64,000 nt of DNA from Staphylococcus phage vB_SurM-PSU4. The stretch lies in sequence record OL436245.1; one strand, written 5' to 3'. Under the pieces are notes generated by a model, which was not told the DNA's origin, ran no database searches, and was given only the letters and a program-made list of their open reading frames with translations. Positions 10,239-60,675 of this stretch are shown here, in pieces. Every line of letters starts with the position of its first letter. Position 1 is the first letter of the stretch. Both the position numbers and the translations under genes were made by a program.

Positions 10239-12110
10239 TTAAACAAGTGTAAAATATGCTTTTATAATTGGTATAACTTGTTCTAACAATTCTTCATCTG
10301 TTAATTCATTACCGTCTTCATTCCAAAAAGTAAAAGCTGTACCTTTTAAGTTATCTTTAGTATCAACTATTGTATATGGATTTTCTTTCTCACAAAACTT
10401 ATTTTCAGCAAAATTAGAACGTATATAATCTATTTGTTCATCAATGGCACCCTCTGCTTTTCCATTTAAAGACGGACTATAAACTTGAGAATAGAAATTA
10501 CTATTAACTACCATCTTATTTTCCTCAATAAATTTCTCGGCAGAAGATAGCCCTTGTAGCCAATAAGACACCTCAATATTATCGTTTAACATTTTAATAC
10601 CATCGTCTGTAAGACAGTCATTCCACATTCTAGGATAATAACCTCTCTCATAAACTTTTTTCGCCATTCTATTGACAAAATTCACATAATCAATTTGAGC
10701 AACATTGACACCAGGTACTTCATCGGCACCAATTGAGAAAACTAATCTATCACCATATTTAGGTTGATAAAACATAGTTGTAATTTCTTCAATAAGGTCT
10801 TCTATAAATTTTGCAGCTATATCATTTCCATAATAATCAGCCAAACCAGTATCATAATCAGATACTACATTGGAATATAAATCGGGATTTTTTGCCTTCA
10901 ATAAGTCTAACCACCCTTGAGAATGTCCTGGAACATCAAAATCAGGAACAATCATAACATTTTTACCATTGGCATAGTCTATAAGTTCCATAATTTCTTT
11001 TTTAGTTAAATATTTATCATTACTTGTAGTCCCATTCTGACCTAAAATTTCTGAATGAATTGAATAACCTTGGTCATCAGAAAAATGTAGTTGTAAATAA
11101 TCTCCTTTGTTAGCTGAAATCTCGTCAACAATTTCTTTTAATGTTGCTAAGTTGGTGAAACGTCTTGAAATATCGAAAATAATACCCTTTCCTAATTTGA
11201 TTTCAAAATCGTTTTTGTTTACAAACGTTTTGATTAGGTCATTCATATAATTTTCTCGCATAGACAGACTGATATAGGCTTTGTCTAAGACAGGTTTTCC
11301 GTTATATATGTGTAACAAAGCGAAAGCAGTATTTGTCGTATTTATATAAGTTTGTATTTTATCATTAGATAAAGAGACTGAACTATCAGTCCAATCCATT
11401 GTTACAATACCTTGTTGAAACTGTGTAAAATCAGTTGTTTTTGTTTCTGGTTCATTAATATCCAAAACATTACCAATAAAGTAGTAATTTACTGTTTGTG
11501 CATTGAGCGGATTGATTTGCTCTATAATTCCATTATCACTATCGACTACTGGAGTTTCTAAGTTTTCAAAATATTGCTCTCTTAATATTTGAGGTAGTCT
11601 AGTTTGATTGACAGAACCATTTCCTTTTTCACCTTTTTCTCCAGTGTTACCCTTATCCCCTTTTGGTCCCATAGGACCTGTTGGACCTTGTGGACCTATT
11701 TCACCATCAATTCCATCTCCACCTTTATCTCCTTTTTCACCAGGTTCACCTTTATCACCCTTAGGTCCTTGTGGACCTTGTTCCCCTTTAATGGACTTAA
11801 CCCATTCCTCTTCTGTTCCTTCGAATCCATTATCTACTGCTATATCATAAGATGTTTTAGGTTTAACAGTTAAGATATCTTTAGCATAGAATATAATCTC
11901 TTTATAAGGAGATTCTAATGTAGTAAATTCAGGAACAACTACTTTTTCTGATTCATAGTTGTCCCCTTCCCAAGAAATATAAAATTCCCCTTCAGGGTAT
12001 TTTGTGTGTGGTTTTAGGTTAGGTATAATAACAGAACCTTGGTCAGATTCTACATCATAACCTATAGCTAGTATATTACCTTCTTTATCATAAGCTTTTA
12101 AATGTGGCAT
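10239..12110 (-). CDS. collagen-like repeat protein with C-terminal GH20 (beta-N-acetylhexosaminidase)-like domain
   Basis: RBS aggag 9 nt before ATG 12110; the block SYDIAVDNGFEGTEEEWVKSIKGEQGPQGPKGDKGEPGEKGDKGGDG... contains Gly-X-Y repeats; the C-terminal half has PDFDVPGHSQGW and SIGADEVPG, which resemble GH20 motifs. Confidence 0.5.
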   Translation of the reverse strand: MPHLKAYDKEGNILAIGYDVESDQGSVIIPNLKPHTKYPEGEFYISWEGDNYESEKVVVPEFTTLESPYKEIIFYAKDILTVKPKTSYDIAVDNGFEGTEEEWVKSIKGEQGPQGPKGDKGEPGEKGDKGGDGIDGEIGPQGPTGPMGPKGDKGNTGEKGEKGNGSVNQTRLPQILREQYFENLETPVVDSDNGIIEQINPLNAQTVNYYFIGNVLDINEPETKTTDFTQFQQGIVTMDWTDSSVSLSNDKIQTYINTTNTAFALLHIYNGKPVLDKAYISLSMRENYMNDLIKTFVNKNDFEIKLGKGIIFDISRRFTNLATLKEIVDEISANKGDYLQLHFSDDQGYSIHSEILGQNGTTSNDKYLTKKEIMELIDYANGKNVMIVPDFDVPGHSQGWLDLLKAKNPDLYSNVVSDYDTGLADYYGNDIAAKFIEDLIEEITTMFYQPKYGDRLVFSIGADEVPGVNVAQIDYVNFVNRMAKKVYERGYYPRMWNDCLTDDGIKMLNDNIEVSYWLQGLSSAEKFIEENKMVVNSNFYSQVYSPSLNGKAEGAIDEQIDYIRSNFAENKFCEKENPYTIVDTKDNLKGTAFTFWNEDGNELTDEELLEQVIPIIKAYFTLV

Positions 12111-32399: not shown

Positions 32400-33716
32400 T
32401 TATTCCTCTTCTTCTTCTTCTTCTGTTTGTTCTTCTTCTGTTTGTTCTTCTTGATATTGTTCTTGAGATTGTTCTGTTTGTTGTTCTTGAGATTGTTCTG
32501 TTTGTTGTTCTTGAGATTGTTCTGTTTGTTGTTCTTGAGATTGTTCTTTAATTGCAGGTTCTAAAGGTACCATTGGAATAACTTCATTAGGTATTACAGG
32601 TTCTAAAGGTACCATAGGTTGTTCTTGAGATTGTTCTGTTTGTTGTTCTTGAGATTGTTCTGTTTGTTGTTCTTGAGATTGTTCTTTAATTGCAGGTTCT
32701 AAAGGTACCATTGGAATAACTTCATTAGGTATTGCAGGTTCTAAAGGTACCATAGGTTGTTCTTGTACTTTATTAGAAGATTCTAAAGTTACATCAGGTT
32801 TTCTATATGGTACATTATTGTCATCTTCAATAGGTTGTTGAGGTTCTATAGGAACAAAAGACTCTGGAACTGTTTGATTATCTGTAGTATCTTGAGGTAC
32901 CGTAGGTTCTTCCACAGGGTCTTGAGGTTCTATTGGTGTGTTAGGAAGAATTGGTTGTTCTATAGGTTTTTCAGATAAATTAGGTTGTTGTACTTGAGGA
33001 ACTTCGGGTGTTATAGGTTGTTGTACTTCTGGTTGTGCTTGAGGAACTTGTGGTTGCTCTACAGATGTAACAGGAGGTGCTTCTCCTTGATTATTACCTT
33101 GTGGTGGAACAATTGGTTCATTTTGTACTTGATTTCCTACAGGGTTACTTTGAGTTGGTTCTGTAGGTGTTGTAGGTGTATTATTAACACTTTCTACAAT
33201 ATCCTGTTCAGAACTATTTAAATCTTTACTATCTCCTTGTATTCCTTCTATAACTTTTTCCTTATCTATCTTATCTAACATACCTTTAGGAACTTCTACT
33301 TTCCCTATTCCGTCATCCCCTTGCACAATTCTAGGTTTATCAATCTTACTATTCTCTTTAATATCTTTACTAATTAGAACTAAGTCATCATACTTAGAGG
33401 AACCTTCATTATATTTATCTAATTGCTTATTCTGTTCTTTGGTACTTAATTCATTAAAACCTTTATAATTTGTTTCCTTCTTAACCTTTTTGATTTCTTC
33501 TTTCGCTTGACTTAATTTCTTAGCATAATTCTCAGAAATTTTATCATCTTTCTTATCTTCTTCTTTATAAATTTCTATTGTTCTTTCTTTTTCTTGTATC
33601 TCGTTTTGATACTCTTTGACTTGTTGATAGAAGATAATGAAACCAATCATAATTAAGATGATAAAGAATATAAAAATATTTAAGATTAAACTTTTACCAC
33701 TCTCTTTATTTTTCAT
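32400..33716 (-). CDS. membrane-anchored Pro/Gln/Glu-rich repeat protein
   Basis: N-terminal TM helix LILNIFIFFIILIMIGFIIF, coiled-coil region, then Pro-rich and EQSQEQQT tandem repeats; DNA tandem repeats at 32455-32770. Confidence 0.55.
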   Translation of the reverse strand: MKNKESGKSLILNIFIFFIILIMIGFIIFYQQVKEYQNEIQEKERTIEIYKEEDKKDDKISENYAKKLSQAKEEIKKVKKETNYKGFNELSTKEQNKQLDKYNEGSSKYDDLVLISKDIKENSKIDKPRIVQGDDGIGKVEVPKGMLDKIDKEKVIEGIQGDSKDLNSSEQDIVESVNNTPTTPTEPTQSNPVGNQVQNEPIVPPQGNNQGEAPPVTSVEQPQVPQAQPEVQQPITPEVPQVQQPNLSEKPIEQPILPNTPIEPQDPVEEPTVPQDTTDNQTVPESFVPIEPQQPIEDDNNVPYRKPDVTLESSNKVQEQPMVPLEPAIPNEVIPMVPLEPAIKEQSQEQQTEQSQEQQTEQSQEQPMVPLEPVIPNEVIPMVPLEPAIKEQSQEQQTEQSQEQQTEQSQEQQTEQSQEQYQEEQTEEEQTEEEEEEE

Positions 33717-34744: not shown

Positions 34745-34778
34745 TTATAAAAACCGTAAGCCTTAAACTTACGGTTTA
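34745..34778 (-). terminator. rho-independent terminator after terL
   Basis: hairpin aaaccgtaag...cttacggttt with a T-run on the minus strand. Confidence 0.55.
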
Positions 34779-34781
34779 GTT

Positions 34782-35575
34782 TTAATCATCTAAAAAGAAT
34801 TCGTTATTGTCTTCATAACTTGTGTTAATGAATACAGAATCAAATTCATTTTCATTATTTTTAATGTATAAGTCTTCTAGACGTGATAGACCAATTCTCG
34901 CATATATACTTGCTTGACTATAATGGTCATCACCTTTTCTCTTGATTACTTGATACATTTCTTCTGTCTTGCTATCTTCTTCATCTCTGATGACCACATT
35001 TTGCCAATGTTTAAGAAGTATAGCTTTATCATTATCATTTTCTTGGTAAATTCTTATTCTACCTGTTTTTAAATCTTGGATATAAATTTTGTTCTGCATC
35101 AATTTATCTACAGTAACAATATTTGAATTCTCGTTAAACACAGGTTTAATTTGTCCAGTAGATTTAGGAGATGATTTGTAAGTACAACCAAACACAATAT
35201 CTTCACCGAAGTATTGTTGGAGTCTTAGTAAGTTGTTTCCTGAATCTCCTGTATCTGCTACAATAATATCTGGGTTATACTTAGAAAATTCTACACGTAT
35301 TTTTTCTATATCCGATTCAACCATGTTAGGGTTTTTATTTCGTTTAACATTAAATAACCTAATGAGGTCTATCTTACCATCTTCAGTCATTCCATGAATT
35401 GTACAATAATGAATATTACCCCAATCCACTGATGCTGCGATAAATTTATAATCCCCTCTATTAAACATTTGTTTCTTAGCAATAGGAGATTGGTTGTTGT
35501 AAATATCTTCTTGTAATACTTTCATCTTCTGGTCTTCGTATGGAAACGTTACTACCGTCACTTTCGTGATATTTA
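34782..35575 (-). CDS. terL: terminase large subunit, last exon (C-terminal nuclease domain)
   Basis: IAASVDWGN ... IIVADTGDSGNN ... KGDDHYSQASIYARIG resemble the RNase H-like nuclease motifs of large terminases (Asp strand, DDxxxAxxxA tail); the 5' boundary is set by intron core 35581-35708. Confidence 0.6.
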
Positions 35576-36115
35576 TATACGGACTAGACTATATCATATT
35601 CCTTATTTTTGACTAAGGAATCTCTACTTTACAGGTCGTTAACCTTCTCTTATAGTTCTACCTTACCTCATTTAGTAAGTTACCTATAAACTTAGTCGTT
35701 AGGCATTTATCTACTTTGTAGAATTTAGCAATTGATTGCCCTCATCTTTACATGTTAGGGGTTTCCAATTTTAGTAGAGTTATTCGATATACATTACTGT
35801 ATAAAGGGGCTATCCCGCTAACCCAGCGTGTAGTTGTAGAACAATTGAGTTGATTCAGTATTCATTTCTTTTTCTTTTAATTCACTAGCTGAAATCCAAC
35901 ATTTTTTTGTTACGATTGAGTTCGTTATTCTCAACCTTCTATATATCGCTATATAAGTTCAGACTATATCTTTACCTTATCAAATGAGACTTAGGTATCC
36001 TCTGTTTCGTGCTACTTAGCACTACTAATTAGTCGTTGCACGTTCTCTTATTACAAGAGCTTCGCTCATGATTATCTCTAATGAGAGACTTCCCATGAAT
36101 TAAAAGGACTTCACT
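35576..36115 (-). ncRNA. group I intron (ORF-less) in terL; boundaries approximate
   Basis: minus-strand sense has an R-like element aaatgcctaacgactaag (plus 35691-35708) and an S-like element atgatatagtctagtcc (plus 35581-35597), forming P7 gacta/tagtc; no ORF inside. Confidence 0.55.
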
Positions 36116-36118
36116 CTA

Positions 36119-36500
36119 TACATTTCTATATAGAGGGGCTTGGTTAACCGCATTTAGCTGTGAAATAAAATAACCTCTTGTTCCTTTTCCACCTTTAGTT
36201 CTTTCAGGATACTTACAGTGCCATTCTCCGTTATACCATCTATCTAGAAGTTTACCACATTTTTGACAAACAAATTGGTAACTTCCTTCTTGCACTGTTT
36301 TAGCCATTTCGTCAACACCTTCAGGATTGACTAATAGGATATTTCCACTCTTCTCTAAGTTATCTGGGTCATAGTCTTCATAACTCATTTCATTTAAGTA
36401 ATCACAATGTGTACATCTATGACCATAATACCATTGGTCAGATTGCATATAGAGTTTATGAATTCCCATATTTGGAGTCGTCTTCAACATTACTATTTTC
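36119..36500 (-). CDS. terL: terminase large subunit, internal exon (contains Cys-rich zinc-ribbon-like segment)
   Basis: ORF bracketed by two intron cores; HRCTHCDY ... CQKCG ... WHC. Confidence 0.45.
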
Positions 36501-36502
36501 AT

Positions 36503-37691
36503 AATAAAATGGACTATCTCATAATCCTTAGTTTTGGTTAAGGATTCTCTGCTTTACGATTTTATAAATAACTAAAAATAACTTCTTTTATTTCTTCATC
36601 TGTATAAGTATAGGGTATTCTTAATAAATCTATATTATTTTTTTCAGCATAATTATTTTTAATATTATCTCTTCTTTGTTGGTCTTTCAATTTTTTAGCC
36701 CCACCAAAAAATTCTACAGGTTTACTATGCTGAATTCCATCATATTCTATAAGAAGGTTTTTACTAGGAATATAAAAATCAAAAGGTAAGTATTTACCTC
36801 TAACTTTTAAATCTTCATATACTTTTTGTATTTCGTAAGTAACTTTATTATCTTTTAGAACTCTCTCTACTTTTCTCTCACCCTTAGATTGTTTACAAAA
36901 AGGACATCTATTACCATTTAAAAAATCTTTAGGTGTAACATAGTAATCAGAACCACAACCTTTATGATGAACAACAACATTTGACCTATTATTAATATAC
37001 TCAGATTTTAAAATAAATTCACCCTCACCTTTTTGTAATACCTCTTTTTTAAATTCCTCAGTAGTTTTTCTTCTATTACCAAAACAATAGGGGCATCTAT
37101 TACCTCTTAAGAAATCTTTAGGTGTCATATCAAAAATATTATCACATTTGAAATGTTTTATTTTTATCTTAGTAGTGCTTCTTCTATACTTTGTTAGTTG
37201 TTGATACTCTTCTTTTGCTATTTCTTTGAATTCTTTTTCAAAAATATAAGGATTTTTTCTTGTTGTGTTACATGAACATCTTCTATTATCATAGAAAAAA
37301 TGATTGGGTGTTGTTGTGAATATCTCACCACAATCAGTATGGAAAAAATCCATATTTACGTTACCTTTTATATATTCTGATTTAACCTTGTATTCTTCCC
37401 CTACTTTATTATACAATCTTTCTTTTATATCTTCTGTAGTTACTTTTTTAGTCATTTAAATCATCCTCTTATTAATATTTTATTCAATTATAACAAATAA
37501 ATATTAATAAGTCAATGATTATTTAAAATCTTTTATCTGATTCTACCTTACTCCTTTTAGTAAGTTACTCAGAAATTTAGTCTCTAGGCATTTACAAGTA
37601 TATAACTTGATTTAGCAATTGATTGTCTACAGCATTATCTGTTTAGAGTTTCCAATTTTAACAGAGTTTTTCAAAACAAATTACTTTGTTA
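36503..37691 (-). ncRNA. group I intron in terL carrying an endonuclease ORF; boundaries approximate
   Basis: R-like aaatgcctagagactaaa (plus 37576-37594) upstream of the ORF and S-like gagatagtcc (plus 36511-36520) downstream of it, so the ORF sits in the P8 loop region. Confidence 0.55.
36562..37455 (-). CDS. intron-encoded endonuclease: N-terminal CxxC zinc-ribbon repeats plus C-terminal Vsr/DUF559-like PD-(D/E)XK domain
   Basis: repeated modules ending RCSC, RCPYC, RCPFC; C-terminus FDFYIPSKNLLIEYDGIQHSKPVEFFGG ... NIDLLRIPY matches the DFY...IE.DG..H core of Vsr-like endonucleases. Confidence 0.6.
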   Translation of the reverse strand: MTKKVTTEDIKERLYNKVGEEYKVKSEYIKGNVNMDFFHTDCGEIFTTTPNHFFYDNRRCSCNTTRKNPYIFEKEFKEIAKEEYQQLTKYRRSTTKIKIKHFKCDNIFDMTPKDFLRGNRCPYCFGNRRKTTEEFKKEVLQKGEGEFILKSEYINNRSNVVVHHKGCGSDYYVTPKDFLNGNRCPFCKQSKGERKVERVLKDNKVTYEIQKVYEDLKVRGKYLPFDFYIPSKNLLIEYDGIQHSKPVEFFGGAKKLKDQQRRDNIKNNYAEKNNIDLLRIPYTYTDEEIKEVIFSYL

Positions 37692-38005
37692 AGCCCCACG
37701 ATTTAACATAGGGGTACTCCAACGTCTTATAACCTTGAAAGGTGAACTTGACATTGATTCCATTGCTGATGATTCTGATGATGAAGGTACTCTATCATAT
37801 TCATCCAGTGACAAATAATCAATATCCACACCTTCTAAAGCTTTAGGTGTAGAACTTGTTCTAAAGAACATACTTGAATTTCTTATTTGTTTATATTTTA
37901 ATGAGTCATTATCTTGGTTAATGATGCTTGCAAAATAAGGTTGTTGCAATGTAGGGTTTATCCTACTTTGTACGAATTTCTGCATTTGGTCACTGGTCAT
38001 TTTTA
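37692..38005 (-). CDS. terL: terminase large subunit, internal exon (Walker B-like DIDYLSLDEYD)
   Basis: ORF bracketed by intron cores; hydrophobic run then DE, typical of a terminase ATPase Walker B. Confidence 0.45.
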
Positions 38006-39408
38006 CCCCTAGTTTCCTAGTATTTAAAGGGATTAGACTATATCATAAGAATACATTTATATATTTAAATACGGACTGTATTCTTCTCTGCTTTACTTCC
38101 TAATAAGTATTTATCTTTTAAGTCTTCTAAGTAATTTATAAGTTTTATTCCTGCTATTGTGTAAGGTATTCTAATCATCTCAATGTTATTATCTTTAGCG
38201 TACTTATTTTTTATATCATCTCTTATTTGTTGCTTTTTGAAGGCTTCTAAACCTCCAAAATATTCTATAGGTTCATAATGTTGTTTCCCATCATATTCAA
38301 TAAAAAGCCCATTCTCACCATAATCAGGTATATAAAAATCAAACTTTAAAATGTTAATATATCTACAATCCTCAAATGATTTTTGAAACTCATATATTAT
38401 ACCTTCATCTTTTAAAAATCCCGCTATTATATCTTCGCCATTAGAAATACTACTACATTGAGGGCATCCTGTTAACCTTAAAACATGATTAGGTTCAGCT
38501 TTAAAAACACATTTACACTCATTACATTGGAAAGATGTTTTAGTATGAGTATTTACATAATCACCTATCAAACTTATTTTACCTTTGTGAAAATACTCTA
38601 ATTGTTCTTGAACAACATCTATCTTCTTACGTTGAGATTCTTTAACATTTTCTATGATACATTGAGGACATACATTCTTCCTTCTTTTACTTATCATATT
38701 TATAGGTGTATTATAAAAATAAAAATCATGTACATTACATTTTAATTTTATACTTTCCGAATATCCTGTATATTCACCAATAACAGAAATATTATTATTG
38801 TACTTTTTATTTATCTCATCTTTAAACGTATCTGTTGTTTTAATTCTTTTTTGATTATCACAATAATAACATCTACTATTTCCTGTTAGGAAATTATTTG
38901 GTTTTACAGACCATTCATTACCACAAATGTTATGTTTCATAAGTATTTTATCTCTAGTTCTTGTATACTTACCAATAACTGTGTATTCATTACCTACTAA
39001 ATCATATATTTCTCGTTCAAATTCTTCTTGTGTTTTCTTTTTAGACATTCTTATCCCCCTTTCTTATCTTTTTATACTTATTAGGTTTTCTTATACTATT
39101 TTCGTTATCTCCATTCAGATAACTATTAGTAAGTTTAGTCGTTAGACATTTATCCTAACATTACTATATCATATATAAATATAGTTGTCAAGAATTTAGT
39201 ACGGTAGGTTCCCACTATCTGTGTATAGTCAGAGTTAGGGTTTCTTACCAGTATATTGTTTATCTATACATTATTTTACTATGCCCGTTTAACAGAGTTT
39301 TAGTTCCCCACTCTGTTATTTCATAGGGAACGTGAACATACACTTGACAGAATCTTTACTATGTGTATCTGCAAAATGCAACATCTTATTGTATCCAACT
39401 TCACTTAA
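38006..39408 (-). ncRNA. group I intron in terL carrying an endonuclease ORF; boundaries approximate
   Basis: R-like taaatgtctaacgactaaac (plus 39133-39152), S-like atgatatagtctaatccc (plus 38031-38046); the 3' end cccctagtttcctagtatttaaaggg is shared with the intron at 39479..39734. Confidence 0.5.
38065..39048 (-). CDS. intron-encoded endonuclease, paralog of 36562..37455 (CxxC repeats plus Vsr/DUF559-like domain)
   Basis: C-terminus FDFYIPDYGENGLFIEYDGKQHYEPIEYFGG ... NIEMIRIPY; N-terminal modules ending RCYYC, CPQC, CPQC. Confidence 0.6.
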   Translation of the reverse strand: MSKKKTQEEFEREIYDLVGNEYTVIGKYTRTRDKILMKHNICGNEWSVKPNNFLTGNSRCYYCDNQKRIKTTDTFKDEINKKYNNNISVIGEYTGYSESIKLKCNVHDFYFYNTPINMISKRRKNVCPQCIIENVKESQRKKIDVVQEQLEYFHKGKISLIGDYVNTHTKTSFQCNECKCVFKAEPNHVLRLTGCPQCSSISNGEDIIAGFLKDEGIIYEFQKSFEDCRYINILKFDFYIPDYGENGLFIEYDGKQHYEPIEYFGGLEAFKKQQIRDDIKNKYAKDNNIEMIRIPYTIAGIKLINYLEDLKDKYLLGSKAEKNTVRI

Positions 39409-39478
39409 TCCAAGTTGTCTCGATTTAAGTACTGCTATGTTAGGGTGTTTATCATTTATTATGGCAATCTGCCCGTTT
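39409..39478 (-). CDS. terL: terminase large subunit, short exon containing Walker A-like SRQLG
   Basis: minus-strand reading ...GQIAIINDKHPNIAVLKSRQLG between two intron cores; compare T4 gp17 Walker A SRQLGKT; the downstream exon may supply the K-T. Confidence 0.4.
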
Positions 39479-39734
39479 TATACCCCTAGTTTCCTAGTAT
39501 TTAAAGGGTTTGGACTATCTCATAGTTACTAATTTAGGTAAGTAACCCTCTTCTGTTACTTCTCTTAAAAAGAGCTTTCTTATACTGTTCTACACTCAAC
39601 CATTTATGAGCTTACCAGTAATTTTAGTCTCTAGGCATTTATGACTTATTAAGCCAATTTAGCAATTGATTGTCCTCGTCTTTACGTTAGGAGTTTCCAA
39701 TTTTAAGAAGAGTTTAAAGACCACAGCAAATTTA
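39479..39734 (-). ncRNA. group I intron (ORF-less) in terL; boundaries approximate
   Basis: R-like aaatgcctagagactaaaa (plus 39622-39640), S-like gagatagtcc (plus 39512-39523). Confidence 0.45.
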
Positions 39735-39935
39735 TGGTCTATGAGCTTGAGCTTTACTTTTATCTCTATTTGGTATAGAAAAAGTAATATTATGCCCACG
39801 AATTAAATTGTGTTTCAACATATAAGCAGTAGTACTAGACATTGTTAATACATAATCTAATTGTTCTTGGGTAACATTTGTAGTTCCATATGTGGATATG
39901 AGTAAGTCTTTTAATTGTTTTCCATCCATTTTCAT
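39735..39935 (-). CDS. terL: terminase large subunit, first exon (N-terminus MKMDGKQLKDLL...)
   Basis: ATG with RBS ggagac directly after the stop of 39938..40408; the in-frame stop at 39732 lies inside intron sequence. Confidence 0.4.
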
Positions 39936-46436: not shown

Positions 46437-47923
46437 TGACTAAGACTCAAGCAGAAATAAATAAACGTTTAGATGCTTACGCAAAAGGAACAGTAGATAG
46501 CCCTTATAGAGTTAAGAAAGCAACAAGTTATGACCCTAGTTTTGGTGTTATGGAAGCAGGAGCTATTGATGTAGATAAATATTACCACGCTCAATGTCAA
46601 GACCTTATTACAGACTATGTATTATGGCTAACAGATAATAAAGTTAGAACTTGGGGTAATGCTAAAGACCAAATCAAACAAAGTTACGGTACTGGATTTA
46701 AAATACACCAAAATAAACCTTCTACAGTACCTAAAAAAGGTTGGATTGCAGTATTTACAGGTGGTAGTTATTCACAGTGGGGTCATATAGGTATTGTATA
46801 TGATGGAGGTAATACTTCAACATTTACTATTTTAGAGCAAAACTGGAACGGTTACGCTAATAAAAAACCTACAAAACGTGTAGATAATTATTACGGATTA
46901 ACTCATTTCATCGAAATACCTTTAAAAGCAGGAACTACTGTTAAAAAAGAAACAGCTAAGAAAAGTGCAAGTAAAACACCCGAACCTAAAAAGAAAGCAA
47001 CATTAAAAGTTTCTAAGAATCATATTAACTATACAATGGCTAAACGTGGTAAAAAACCTGAAGGCATGGTAATACACAACGATGCGGGTCGTTCTTCAGG
47101 ACAACAATATGAGAATTCATTAGCTAAAGCAGGTTATGCTAGGTATGCTAATGGTATTGCTCATTACTACGGTTCTGAAGGTTATATATGGGAAGCAATA
47201 GATGCTAAGAATCAAATTGCTTGGCACACAGGTGATGGAACAGGAGCAAACTCAGGTAACTTTAGATTTGCAGGTATTGAAGTCTGTCAATCAATGAGTG
47301 CTAGTGATGCTCAATTCCTTAAAAATGAACAAGCAGTATTCCAATTTACAGCAGAAAAATTTAAAGAGTGGGGTATTACGCCTAACCGTAAAAGTGTAAG
47401 ATTACACATGGAATTCGTTCCTACTGCGTGCCCTCACCGTTCAATGGTTCTTCATACAGGATTTAATCCAGTAACTCAAGGAAGACCATCACAAGCAATA
47501 ATGAATAAACTAAAAGATTATTTCATTAAACAAATTAAAAACTACATGGATAAAGGCACTTCAAGTTCTACTGTAGTTAAAAAAGGTAAAACAAGTAGTG
47601 CAAGTACACCAGCAACTAGACCAGTTGTAGGTTCTTGGAAAAAGAACCAGTACGGAACTTGGTATAAACCAGAAAATGCAACATTTGTTAATGGTAACCA
47701 ACCTATAGTAACTAGAATAGGTTCTCCATTCTTAAATGCTCCAGTAGGAGGTAACTTACCAGCAGGGGCTACAATTGTATATGACGAAGTTTGTATCCAA
47801 GCAGGTCATATTTGGATAGGTTATAATGCTTATAACGGTAACAGAGTATATTGCCCTGTTAGAACATGTCAAGGTGTTCCACCAAACCATATACCAGGAG
47901 TTGCCTGGGGTGTATTTAAATAG
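46436..47923 (+). CDS. lysK: endolysin LysK-type (CHAP peptidase + amidase_2 + SH3b), uninterrupted
   Basis: 495 aa, matching LysK as I remember it ([57 protein letters not shown]...) apart from its first residue and a few substitutions; CHAP Cys/His, amidase and C-terminal SH3b motifs all present; no intron. Confidence 0.9.
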
Positions 47924-58646: not shown

Positions 58647-58985
58647 ATGGCAAGTGAAGCTAAACAAAGTATTCACACTGGTAATACCGTCTATCTAATG
58701 GTTAAGGGTAAAATTGTAGGCAGAGCTCAATCAGCTTCAGGTACACGTGAATACGGTACTGAGGGCGTATATGAAATTGGTTCTATCATGCCACAAGAAC
58801 ACGTTTACCTTAGATACGAAGGTACAGTGACAATAGAAAGATTACGAATGAAAAAAGAAAACTTTGCAAAATTAGGATATGCTTCTTTAGGTGAAGAAAT
58901 CCTTAAAAAAGATGTTATCGATATTTTAGTTGTAGATAACTTAACTAAGAGTGTAATCATAGCGTATCATGGTTTAACTAAATAG
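58647..58985 (+). CDS. tail tube protein (112 aa as it stands; 3' end possibly intron-interrupted)
   Basis: small protein right after the sheath with RBS aataggagag; its TAG stop is followed directly by a group-I-like element. Confidence 0.5.
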   Translation: MASEAKQSIHTGNTVYLMVKGKIVGRAQSASGTREYGTEGVYEIGSIMPQEHVYLRYEGTVTIERLRMKKENFAKLGYASLGEEILKKDVIDILVVDNLTKSVIIAYHGLTK

Positions 58986-59364
58986 ACCCCTTGTACAGTG
59001 ATGTGCATTGAATAATACTTTAAATTGCTAGAACACCGTAAAGCTAACTTAACCACATAGGAATTGGAAACGATAAACTAGAAGGTCAGGAAACTAGAAA
59101 AAATAAGTTAGATGGTATATGGTTAAAACCTAAGTACTAATTAATCGGAAATTAGCATCGAAGCTCCTGTAAAATGGAGAACGTTCAACGACTATAATAA
59201 GTGAGTCTTAGTTACAATAAGATTATGGAATAGTCTAGTCCGTATATAAATATTGCGAAAGCAACGGTAGAATCGGTTCAGCGAATAACTATGATGAAGA
59301 GATAAACACGAACGAAATGATAACTGAGAGCATAGAGTTTTCTTATCTTACAGCATTAAATTTC
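58986..59364 (+). ncRNA. group-I-intron-like ribozyme core A (ORF-less)
   Basis: R-like gttcaacgactata (59183-59196) and S-like atagtc (59230-59235) form a P7 pairing; aatcggaa-type internal elements; starts with the motif agaccccttgtacagtgatgtgcattgaataa. Confidence 0.5.
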
Positions 59365-59650
59365 TAGTGCCCTTATACAGTAATGTATATTGAATAAATC
59401 CTCTAATTCAGGGAAACCCTAAACGAAATTAAGACGTAGGCAATCCTGAGCTAAGCCTGTAACATACAGGAAAGTGCAACGACTATCTCTACGGAGAGTA
59501 CGCTCAAGTGAGTGGAAATGGGGATTATCCTATAAAGTATAGGATAGTGATATAGTCTGGACATATATGGAAACATATAGAAGGTTAGGAGTAACGAACC
59601 TAATCGTAACACAATCGCAGATAAAGCATCATAATAATTTAGTATACTTA
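59365..59650 (+). ncRNA. group-I-intron-like ribozyme core B (ORF-less)
   Basis: gggaaaccc (59411-59419), aggcaatcctgagctaagcc (59438-59457; compare T4 td ggcaatcctgagccaagcc), R gtgcaacgactatctc (59474-59489), S atatagtctgg (59550-59560); begins with the same motif agtgcccttatacagtaatgtatattgaataa as core A. Confidence 0.55.
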
Positions 59651-59739: not shown

Positions 59740-60675
59740 ATGAAACAAACAAACCAATTTACATTTAATAAAAAAGAAAGTCAGAAGATATGGGAAGAAT
59801 GGTGTATCAATCAGGGGTTAAAACCTTTAGTTACATATGAGAAATCTCAACAACCTTTTTATTTTGAATTTACTTCAGGTAAATTTAAAGGATTAGTAGG
59901 TAAAACATATTGGGCTAGTATAAAAAGAGGTTCAATAATGAGATTGAGTTGCTTAACAGAAGAGAGTAAAAATAAATATATTAAAGAATTAGGTAAAAGT
60001 AAAGGAATAGAAATTATAGAAGACTATAAAGGAGGTAGAAAAATAAAGCATAAGTTTATTTCAATAGATGGAAAATACAAAGGGTGTGAGGGACAAGTAA
60101 CCTTAAATGACTTAGAGAATATGAAATCTATAGATAATAGAAGTTTAACAATTAAAGGTAAAAAACAATATTTTGATTATAAAGCGAAACAAAGAGATTG
60201 TACAATACTAGAATATCCAGAAAATTATAATATAAAAACCAATGAAAAACTAATAGTAGAAGATAACAAAGGATTAAAACATGAGATAATAGTCCAAGAC
60301 TTTTTTGAGAAAAACTCTATATTAGAAGTTTCAAATTTTAGTGAAGGAGAAAAAATAGTTAAAGAAATACTTATAGAAAGAGGTATTGATTTTATCAAAG
60401 AGAAAGGATTTAAAAATAGTAAAGGTATAACACAGAGGTTTGACTTTTATATAGAATTAGGAGAAGAATTATTTGTAATAGAGTATAATGGTTCACAACA
60501 TTATAAAAAAGCAACGGGATACTTTAAAGATACATTAGAAAAAACTCAAAAAAGAGATGAGTTGAAAAGAGAATATTGTAAAAGAAATAATATATATCTT
60601 TTGGAAATACCTTATACTATTAAAGATAAAGAAAGTATAGACAAAGAGATAAAAGAATTTTTAGACCTAGATTAA
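59740..60675 (+). CDS. free-standing endonuclease, third paralog of the Vsr/DUF559-like family
   Basis: C-terminus FDFYIELGEELFVIEYNGSQHYKKATGYF ... NIYLLEIPY aligns with 36562..37455 and 38065..39048; has its own promoter, RBS and terminator. Confidence 0.6.
   Translation: MKQTNQFTFNKKESQKIWEEWCINQGLKPLVTYEKSQQPFYFEFTSGKFKGLVGKTYWASIKRGSIMRLSCLTEESKNKYIKELGKSKGIEIIEDYKGGRKIKHKFISIDGKYKGCEGQVTLNDLENMKSIDNRSLTIKGKKQYFDYKAKQRDCTILEYPENYNIKTNEKLIVEDNKGLKHEIIVQDFFEKNSILEVSNFSEGEKIVKEILIERGIDFIKEKGFKNSKGITQRFDFYIELGEELFVIEYNGSQHYKKATGYFKDTLEKTQKRDELKREYCKRNNIYLLEIPYTIKDKESIDKEIKEFLDLD

Follow-up and report, generated by a model that had tools for sequence, protein, structure and literature searches.

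A terminase large subunit gene with five predicted group I introns, including two with putative endonuclease genes, in a Baoshanvirus-like Staphylococcus phage

Introduction

Introns in the terminase large subunit gene (ter or terL) of Twort-like phages are established (PMC5618024, PMC10383478). This holds for the Kayvirus ter intron, which encodes I-MsaI, and terminase peptides from both halves of the gene were found by mass spectrometry (PMC5618024). The TerL introns of Bastillevirinae phages (SIOphi, Moonbeam, BCP8-2 and others) number at most three per terL and splice in vitro and in vivo (PMC11878797), and a split terL, spread over orf1-orf6, was noted for Romulus, Remus, KSAP7 and KSAP11 (PMC7497331). 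The tail tube gene of phage Twort, orf142, has three group I introns, for which experiments demonstrated both splicing and the skipping of exons (Landthaler & Shub 1999, as cited in PMC5526547 and PMC11878797). Here we analyze the terL of Staphylococcus phage vB_SurM-PSU4 in a 64-kb window (64,000 nucleotides of sequence record OL436245.1; all coordinates are those of this window, and terL lies on its minus strand, at 39935..34782). We are confident that this gene consists of six exons and five group I introns, two of which contain endonuclease open reading frames (ORFs).

The locus resembles Twort orf142 in having several related group I introns in one gene, but the gene is a different one and the introns are five instead of three. 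Kayviruses have one ter intron or none (A3R), against the five in the window, and the Bastillevirinae differ in their Bacillus hosts and in a nucleotide (nt) similarity of only ~65%. Introns in terL being already known in Twort-like phages, the window adds a new terL case; no report of five terL introns, or of a catalogue of terL intron sites, was found in the incomplete set of literature searched.

Exon-intron structure of terL

Judged by nucleotide similarity, the window is from a Baoshanvirus-like Staphylococcus Twort-like myophage. The region 34700..40000 matches Staphylococcus phages of the Herelleviridae (Twortvirinae), the best being phiSA_BS1 of the genus Baoshanvirus (94% nt, 44% query cover), and in the structural genes the identity to Golestan101, RSM-J51Sa, JDF86 and BS1/BS2 is 96-97%.

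The exons were found by tblastn of the Ter protein (605 amino acids, aa) of the intron-less Kayvirus A3R against the minus strand, and their boundaries were set by requiring a U as the last base of each 5' exon and a G as the last base of each intron. The A3R protein was recovered in six blocks in different frames (residues 1-65, 67-115, 116-211, 212-323, 324-349 and 350-605). These blocks are ordered and non-overlapping, and only W66 of residues 1-605 is uncovered, because intron 1 splits the W66 codon.

Exon 1 (39734..39935, 202 nt) encodes aa 1-67 and the first base of the W68 codon, and its protein is 100% identical to that of Golestan101 exon 1. It is followed by the ORF-less intron 1 (I1; 39474..39733, 260 nt, phase 1, site 67, with sites numbered in codons of the spliced TerL) and by exon 2 (39325..39473, 149 nt, aa 68-117), which contains an intact Walker A motif, KSRQLGLSE, and has a frame that is uninterrupted through KSRQLGLSEVGYNK...FTFP. 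Intron 2 (I2; 37998..39324, 1327 nt, phase 0, site 117) carries an ORF and separates exon 2 from exon 3 (37710..37997, 288 nt, aa 118-213), where the Walker B motif DYLSLDEYD is located and which has a WSTP motif at its end. The second ORF-carrying intron is intron 3 (I3; 36482..37709, 1228 nt, phase 0, site 213), after which exon 4 (36147..36481, 335 nt) encodes aa 214-325, including two bases of the V325 codon. The last two introns are ORF-less: intron 4 (I4; 35900..36146, 247 nt, phase 2, site 325) precedes exon 5 (35821..35899, 79 nt, aa 326-351, WISASELKEKEMNTESTQLFYNYTLG), and intron 5 (I5; 35547..35820, 274 nt, phase 0, site 351) precedes exon 6 (34782..35546, 765 nt including the stop codon, aa 352-605), which encodes the nuclease domain. 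A terminator-like, GC-containing hairpin (34751..34777) is found just past the stop codon.

The last base is T in the five upstream exons and G in the five introns, and in each intron the terminal G is the only position that restores the TerL frame (omega G, 5/5). The five spliced junctions align gap-free to uninterrupted terL alleles of relatives, and reading from an exon into the following intron leads to an in-frame stop after 0-10 codons at all five 5' splice sites. The spliced coding sequence (CDS) is 1818 nt long, in frame, and encodes 605 aa, with the predicted junction peptides AQAHRPWQIAIINDK, CMFTFPTSDQMQK, WSTPTTPNMGIHK, GYFISQLNAVWISASELK and EMNTESTQLFYNYTLGFPYEDQK. A first-pass annotation of this DNA, made by a model from the letters and ORF translations, had proposed that terL is broken by several group I introns, two with endonuclease genes, and that its exons can be joined in one TerL frame. 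Both proposals hold.

In the spliced product, phrog_675 (terminase large subunit) covers residues 21-598 of 605 in a single stretch (E 1e-233), and identity to A3R Ter is 66.5% over residues 3-605. By tblastn, the spliced TerL was matched over at least 80% of its length in 700 phage records, in many of them as one piece. The Pfam family GpA_ATPase (PF05876) starts in exon 2 and spans exons 2-4 (78.9 bits vs a cut-off of 25.6), and we assign TerL by its sequence match to the lambda gpA ATPase type. The first-pass annotation had expected the Walker A, Walker B and nuclease motifs to be restored in one frame. The two Walker motifs were indeed found in one frame, by inspection of the spliced TerL, and the nuclease region matched Pfam Terminase_6C (RNaseH-like) below threshold (18.1 bits vs a cut-off of 22.6, E 0.0028). 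A phmmer search of PDB sequences with the spliced TerL found no terminase, so this protein could not be aligned by sequence to T4 gp17 or SPP1 G2P. Several partial PHROG families are bounded by the intron sites, with phrog_5340 corresponding to aa 3-67 (exon 1) and phrog_38778 to aa 73-118 (exon 2), and phrog_12876 matches aa 118-351 only (exons 3-5). In many genomes, terL fragments have evidently been submitted un-joined, each as a protein of its own.

Group I ribozyme cores

Covariance-model searches with Rfam RF00028 (gathering score 50 bits) were performed on narrow sub-windows. The best match among the terL introns was that of I4 (36157..35939, 90.8 bits, E 5.7e-23), followed by I5 (48.8 bits, E 2.2e-10) and I1 (35.4 bits, E 2e-7, in a 551-nt search). 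RF00028 cannot span I3 because of its ORF. The ORF-less counterpart of I3 at the same site in phiSA_BS1 (265 nt) scored above the gathering score (52.4 bits, E 2.8e-12), and nt 1-183 and 1151-1228 of I3 are 99-100% identical to that intron. In its core, I2 shares 80% nt identity with the I-MsaI intron, which is annotated in ter of Kayvirus MSA6 / fRuSau02, and I2 is 78-82% identical to the site-117 intron of Stau2.

The P1-P9 helices are fully complementary in I1, I2, I3 and I5; in I2 this applies to P1, P3, P4, P6, P7, P7.1, P8 and P9, and the P4-P5 region is expanded. The same four introns have a P1 of 6-7 bp with a U.G at the predicted cleavage site (I1, AGACCAU/GUGGUCU; I2, GUUCCCU/GGGGAAC; I3, CCCU|AUG/CGUGGGG; I5, GGGU|UA/UAGCCC). 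The P1 of I4 is weak, consisting of GGU/GCC and one further pair. P7 of I1 is formed by 39629..39625 with 39517..39513 (minus strand). In I1 and I5, P7.2 folds as a small hairpin, and in I2 and I3 it is the place where the ORF is inserted. From these predicted structures we classify the introns as IA-type group I introns, with P7.1/P7.2 between P7 and P3'.

With one mismatch at most, the R element AAATGYCTARNGACTAAA has exactly four copies in the 64-kb window, at 35691, 37576, 39134 and 39623, all on the minus strand, compared to a chance expectation of 0.02, and these are the four R elements that the first-pass annotation had pointed out. The S element GRNATAGTCY has nine copies against 2.1 expected, five in terL (35586, 35961, 36511, 38035 and 39512), two in the tail-tube gene and two by chance. 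The latter, at 10971 (+) and 51311 (-), were dismissed as intron signals, as both are within long continuous ORFs. The 3' tail ccctttaaatactaggaaactagggg is common to I1 and I2, confirming an earlier remark that two of the introns share their 3' end.

The predicted structure was also evaluated by covariation among nine related introns, including I2 and I3 with their ORFs deleted, aligned with MAFFT; the structure was taken from the Rfam alignment of I5 plus P7. The set is small, and its structure derives from one member. In this alignment 83% of the cells were paired, compared to 30-43% when the partners were slid by 1-3 columns, and compensatory changes occurred in 34 pairs, compared to 6-12 in the slid controls. 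The observed pairing was reached by none of 500 shuffles. P7 (GACUA/UAGUC) is invariant, and P3, P5, P6, P7.1, P8 and P9 covary. P7.1, P8 and P9 are 93-100% paired in all nine introns, and the outer and inner stems of P7.1 are 100% paired with compensatory changes in nine of ten pairs. The pair values for P3-P5 are low and are underestimates, because MAFFT misaligned the 5' region of the I2-type introns.

Compensation extends into the exons, as changes in P1 pair synonymous third-codon positions of the exon with the guide sequence at three sites. At site 67 the window has AGACCAU/GUGGUCU and MSA6 has AGACCGU/GCGGUCU; at site 117, GUUCCCU/GGGGAAC in the window corresponds to AUUCCCU/GGGGAAU in PSU6; and at site 213, CCCU/GGGG corresponds to UCCU/GGGA in BCP8-2.

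Several observations weigh against five functional group I introns. Splicing is inferred here from sequence and structure features, and only I4 directly reaches the Rfam gathering score, I5 and I1 being below it. I2 had no RF00028 match, either in the narrow search, where the ORF splits the intron, or with its 5' half alone, and the ORF-less intron at the I2 site of PSU6, with a related 5' part, scored only 24.3 bits. The covariance-model check suggested in the first-pass annotation gave a match above the gathering score for I4, weaker matches for I5 and I1, and none for I2. Finally, whole-window Rfam scans of the 64 kb, at gathering and E-value thresholds, reported no group I intron, and detection needed the narrow searches. 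These whole-window misses are a loss to the speed filter in AT-rich DNA, not an absence of introns. Two introns with >90 bits (I4, and tail-tube intron B with 95.5 bits) were detected when 2-6 kb was searched and lost in the 64-kb scans; given scores of up to 95 bits in narrow searches, absence from the large scan is no evidence here.

Endonuclease genes and promoter-like sites

The ORF of I2 (38065..39048, minus strand, 327 aa) encodes a putative homing endonuclease (phrog_559, E 2.7e-78), and that of I3 (36562..37455, minus strand, 297 aa) a putative Vsr-type homing endonuclease (phrog_559, E 2.3e-86). The label of phrog_559 is 'HNH endonuclease', and its proteins were assigned the VSR CATH fold and tied to terL introns (PMC11878797). 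Both ORFs match the Pfam DUF4379 treble-clef zinc finger, and they align with each other, with the common motifs FDFYIP...IEYDGxQH...RD..K. An AF2 (AlphaFold2) model of the I3 ORF, with a predicted local distance difference test (pLDDT) score of 71.6, has three repeated N-terminal zinc-finger modules of ~60 aa, followed by an alpha/beta C-terminal domain (pLDDT 75-88). The intron ORFs are probably Vsr-type homing endonucleases with zinc-finger repeats. The fold assignment is weakened by two results: the top PDB matches of the model in Foldseek, PvuRts1I and E. coli Vsr, had probabilities of 0.93-1.00 and TM-scores of 0.55-0.58 (normalised to the Vsr chains), but E-values of only 0.02-0.08, and Pfam DUF559, DUF2726 and DUF5889 were all sub-threshold on the intron ORFs. 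The phmmer search of the I3 ORF against PDB was uninformative, as were NCBIfam scans of the three endonuclease-like ORFs. The closest homologue of the I3 ORF is the terL-intron ORF of Bacillus phage BCP8-2 (59% aa identity).

Both long ORFs lie between the R and S elements, as had been proposed, but they are not in the P8 loop to which the first-pass annotation assigned them. Their cassettes are inserted between P7.1 and P3' (the P7.2 position), and an intact P8 hairpin is found downstream of each ORF. The last codons of the I2 ORF overlap P3' and the 5' strand of P8. The cassette of I3 is a clean 967-nt insertion relative to the otherwise 99-100% identical phiSA_BS1 intron.

A sigma-70-like promoter site is located in the P6 loop of I2, upstream of the ORF (39163..39191, minus strand, TTGACA-17-TATAGT), and another in the I3 ORF cassette, 32 nt upstream of the ATG (37487..37515, minus strand, TTGACT-17-TATAAT). 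Each matches 11 of 12 consensus positions and has TG before the second hexamer, and they are the two best on the strand, apart from one downstream of terL. Published I-MsaI promoter predictions agree with these sites (PMC5618024, PMC10383478). On the other side, the calls are consensus matches in AT-rich DNA, and their total count equals the shuffled expectation. TTGACA-N17-TATAAT boxes are also found in the P6 loops of many related introns, including the site-351 intron of Golestan101 (locus L003, 3455-3768), which is now ORF-less. Its P6 box may be what is left of an endonuclease cassette that the intron once had.

Intron sites in related phages

The terL intron sites were compared with those of relatives, and at least ten insertion sites were found among the handful of genomes examined. 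The window, with sites 67, 117, 213, 325 and 351, is matched in load by two Baoshanviruses in GenBank at partly different sites, Golestan101 (LC557520; 67, 89, 300, 325 and 351) and RSM-J51Sa (PV020493; 67, 89, 213, 296 and 351). The other Baoshanviruses have fewer, BS1 at ~180, 213 and 296, and JDF86 at ~180 and 213. Beyond this genus, introns are present in the Silviavirus Stau2 (67, 117, 325 and 351), the unassigned Twortvirinae phage PSU6 (71, 117 and ~181), the Kayvirus MSA6 (67), Enterococcus phage LG1 (213 and 351) and Bacillus phage BCP8-2 (213), and none in the Kayvirus A3R. Each terL intron of the window is present in some and absent from other close relatives. The load of the window equals the highest among the genomes compared. 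The first-pass annotation had considered even four introns unusually many; five is heavy, but four in Stau2, five in two Baoshanviruses and the split terL genes in the literature make it less exceptional.

Golestan101 and RSM-J51Sa belong to the same genus as the window, and both have the site-67 and site-351 introns (84-97% identity to I1 and I5, with the RSM-J51Sa site-67 intron 97% identical to I1). Golestan101 also shares the site-325 intron (99.6% identity to I4), and RSM-J51Sa the site-213 intron (96-99% identity to the I3 core). They differ from the window in lacking an intron at site 117 and in having an ORF-carrying intron within Walker A (KSRQLG|LSE, site 89). This intron corresponds to 4318/5567 in locus L011 of Golestan101 and to 1240/2489 in locus L005 of RSM-J51Sa. 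Neither record has the introns or a joined CDS annotated. ORF content varies at the same site: the site-351 intron of RSM-J51Sa has a ~1.1-kb ORF insert, whereas I5 is ORF-less, and the site-213 intron of BS1 is ORF-less, whereas I3 carries an ORF.

The terL of Stau2 is split at four of the five window sites, with none at 213. I2 and I4 have orthologues at sites 117 and 325 of Stau2 (78% nt identity), but the Stau2 site-117 intron is only 539 nt long and has no full-length ORF, and its site-351 intron has an ORF, unlike I5. The Kayvirus I-MsaI intron (MSA6, fRuSau02) contains a homologous ORF at the same position within the intron as in I2, with a promoter ahead; the MSA6 record annotates I-MsaI as 'function unknown'. 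The MSA6 intron is inserted at site 67, the site of I1, but its core is related to that of I2 (site 117), and only the P1/guide segment differs. BCP8-2 has its intron at exactly the site of I3, and the site-213 introns of BCP8-2 and LG1 also carry endonuclease ORFs.

Related cores thus recur at different positions, with the I4-type core at sites 325 and 296 and the I2-type core at 117 and 67, and 3' tails are common to I5 and the site-89 intron. Some sites abut catalytic motifs: site 89 is inside Walker A, site ~180 (BS1, JDF86) is between the D and E of Walker B, and site 213 directly follows the conserved WSTP motif. The intron-less and intron-bearing alleles differ mostly synonymously over ~10 nt around each site, often including the -1 nucleotide, which is T in the window allele; at sites 117, 213 and 351, some of the intron-less alleles have A or C instead. 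These flanking differences look like co-conversion tracts or like cleavage-resistant or lost target sites.

Alternative explanations

The alternative that survives best, though we consider it improbable, is that some spacers no longer splice, as in a pseudogene or a defective phage, or that the contig is a chimera stacking the introns of co-occurring phages. The nearest relatives do differ from intron to intron (RSM-J51Sa/BS1 for I1 and I3, Golestan101 for I4, Silviavirus/Kayvirus for the I2 core), and a chimera would give the same mosaic. The 40-mer across the E2/I2 junction was absent from two public collections (viral and genome contigs), and I2 is also the intron that had no covariance-model match. 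However, two independent isolates have five terL introns in mosaic combinations, indicating that mosaicism is natural in this clade, and homing with co-conversion itself yields such mosaics. The core helices are intact in all introns, with compensatory changes, and the exons are under clear purifying selection and encode a full-length TerL.

It is very improbable that the gene is 'fractured', with its pieces translated separately and assembled as protein (by split inteins or non-covalently) without RNA splicing. In the GenBank records of relatives, each piece does appear as a 'terminase large subunit' CDS of its own, some PHROGs families correspond to single exons, and one paper left open a 'fusion of the synthesized peptides' (PMC7497331). 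But exons 2-6 start at splice sites and are given no start codon there in the model, two of the junctions (phases 1 and 2) fall within codons, and exon 5 would encode only 26 aa. In addition, family searches of TerL returned no intein domain, and a group I core is present in all of the spacers. For these reasons, with neither in-frame continuity nor any such domain, inteins and group II introns were dropped as candidates.

The weakest alternative is the four-intron, five-exon model of the first-pass annotation, with an intron in the Walker A codons and the ORFs in P8 loops, which was right about multiple introns and gains some credit from the four R/S pairs found with its consensus and from the Walker A intron that exists in Golestan101 and RSM-J51Sa, but to which we give almost no weight, because it overlooked I4 (36146..35900): its block 36502..35821 has no continuous frame and contains the RF00028 match of I4, A3R residues 212-323 and 324-349 map to two blocks that lie apart and differ in frame, the Walker A codons are uninterrupted within exon 2 (the short block proposed at 39409..39478 is actually this exon, 39473..39325), and both P8 hairpins are intact. 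The I4 match, the six-block tblastn map and the spliced frame together rule it out in favor of six exons and five introns.

Tail-tube gene and other features

In the window, the homologue of Twort orf142, the tail-tube gene (58647..59634, plus strand), is interrupted by two group I introns without ORFs, compared to three introns in Twort, which brings the group I introns in the window to seven (five in terL and two here). Its exons (58647..58974, 59276..59356 and 59618..59634) join to encode 141 aa. RF00028 scored 33.2 bits on intron A (58975..59275) and 95.5 bits on intron B (59357..59617), both on the plus strand. In the 3' part, intron A is very similar to terL I5 and intron B to terL I4, and a conserved 3' hairpin with the terminal G is common to I4 and intron B. 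Downstream of the tail-tube gene, after a hairpin and a T-run, there is a free-standing endonuclease-like ORF (59740..60675, plus strand, 311 aa, phrog_7140/phrog_559), which belongs to the family of the intron ORFs. Its product might serve the introns without ORFs in trans ('collaborative homing').

Two further features of the window were recorded. A weak match to the Staphylococcus small RNA S808 (RF02897) at 47479..47741 (plus strand; 27.7 bits vs a gathering score of 76, E 0.007) is probably noise. A 438-aa ORF at 32400..33716 (minus strand) has a transmembrane-like N-terminus and a long acidic Pro/Gln-rich tail, with the tandem repeats MVPLEPAI.. and EQSQEQQT.. and a glutamate run at the end.

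Discussion

With six exons and five group I introns, the late terL transcript would have to lose all five introns before functional terminase could be made. According to the established group I mechanism, which we apply here by inference, a guanosine bound at P7 would attack the U.G pair in the P1 of each intron in the first transesterification, and the freed 5' exon would then attack just past the terminal G, so that the exons are ligated. The cassettes of I2 and I3, each of which combines an ORF with a Shine-Dalgarno sequence and a sigma-70-like promoter of its own, could allow early expression of the endonucleases. These would cut the intron-less terL alleles of related phages in mixed infections, and double-strand-break repair would copy the intron in (homing). 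The ORF-less I1, I4 and I5 probably persist by vertical descent, by co-conversion with their neighbours or with the help of trans-acting endonucleases.

More speculatively, terL of the Twort-like staphylococcal phages could be the most intron-invaded gene of bacterial viruses, with intron cores spreading to new sites by changing little more than their P1/guide segment. If so, the re-use of cores at different sites and the shared 3' tails would point to frequent ectopic transposition (by reverse splicing or intron-intron recombination) beyond endonuclease homing. In-frame exon skipping, as in Twort orf142 and a reported SIOphi gene, might then also occur, omitting exon 3, exons 4-5 or exons 3-5. 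We regard this as a tentative idea that is rather less likely to be right than wrong.

The terL introns are missed by gene callers and by the default Rfam pipeline, and GenBank relatives list up to four or five unrelated-looking CDSs in their place; routine annotation would miss all seven introns of the window. A joined terL CDS matters for the curation of phage-therapy genomes and for terL-based phylogeny. The five-intron terL is also relevant to the proposal that phage introns act as a GTP-dependent 'on-switch'. As an essential late gene that would need five ribozyme reactions, it offers a natural test of multi-intron splicing and exon skipping, and the mosaic of intron presence and absence in near-identical phages provides a system for homing, the gain and loss of endonuclease genes, and intron retargeting.

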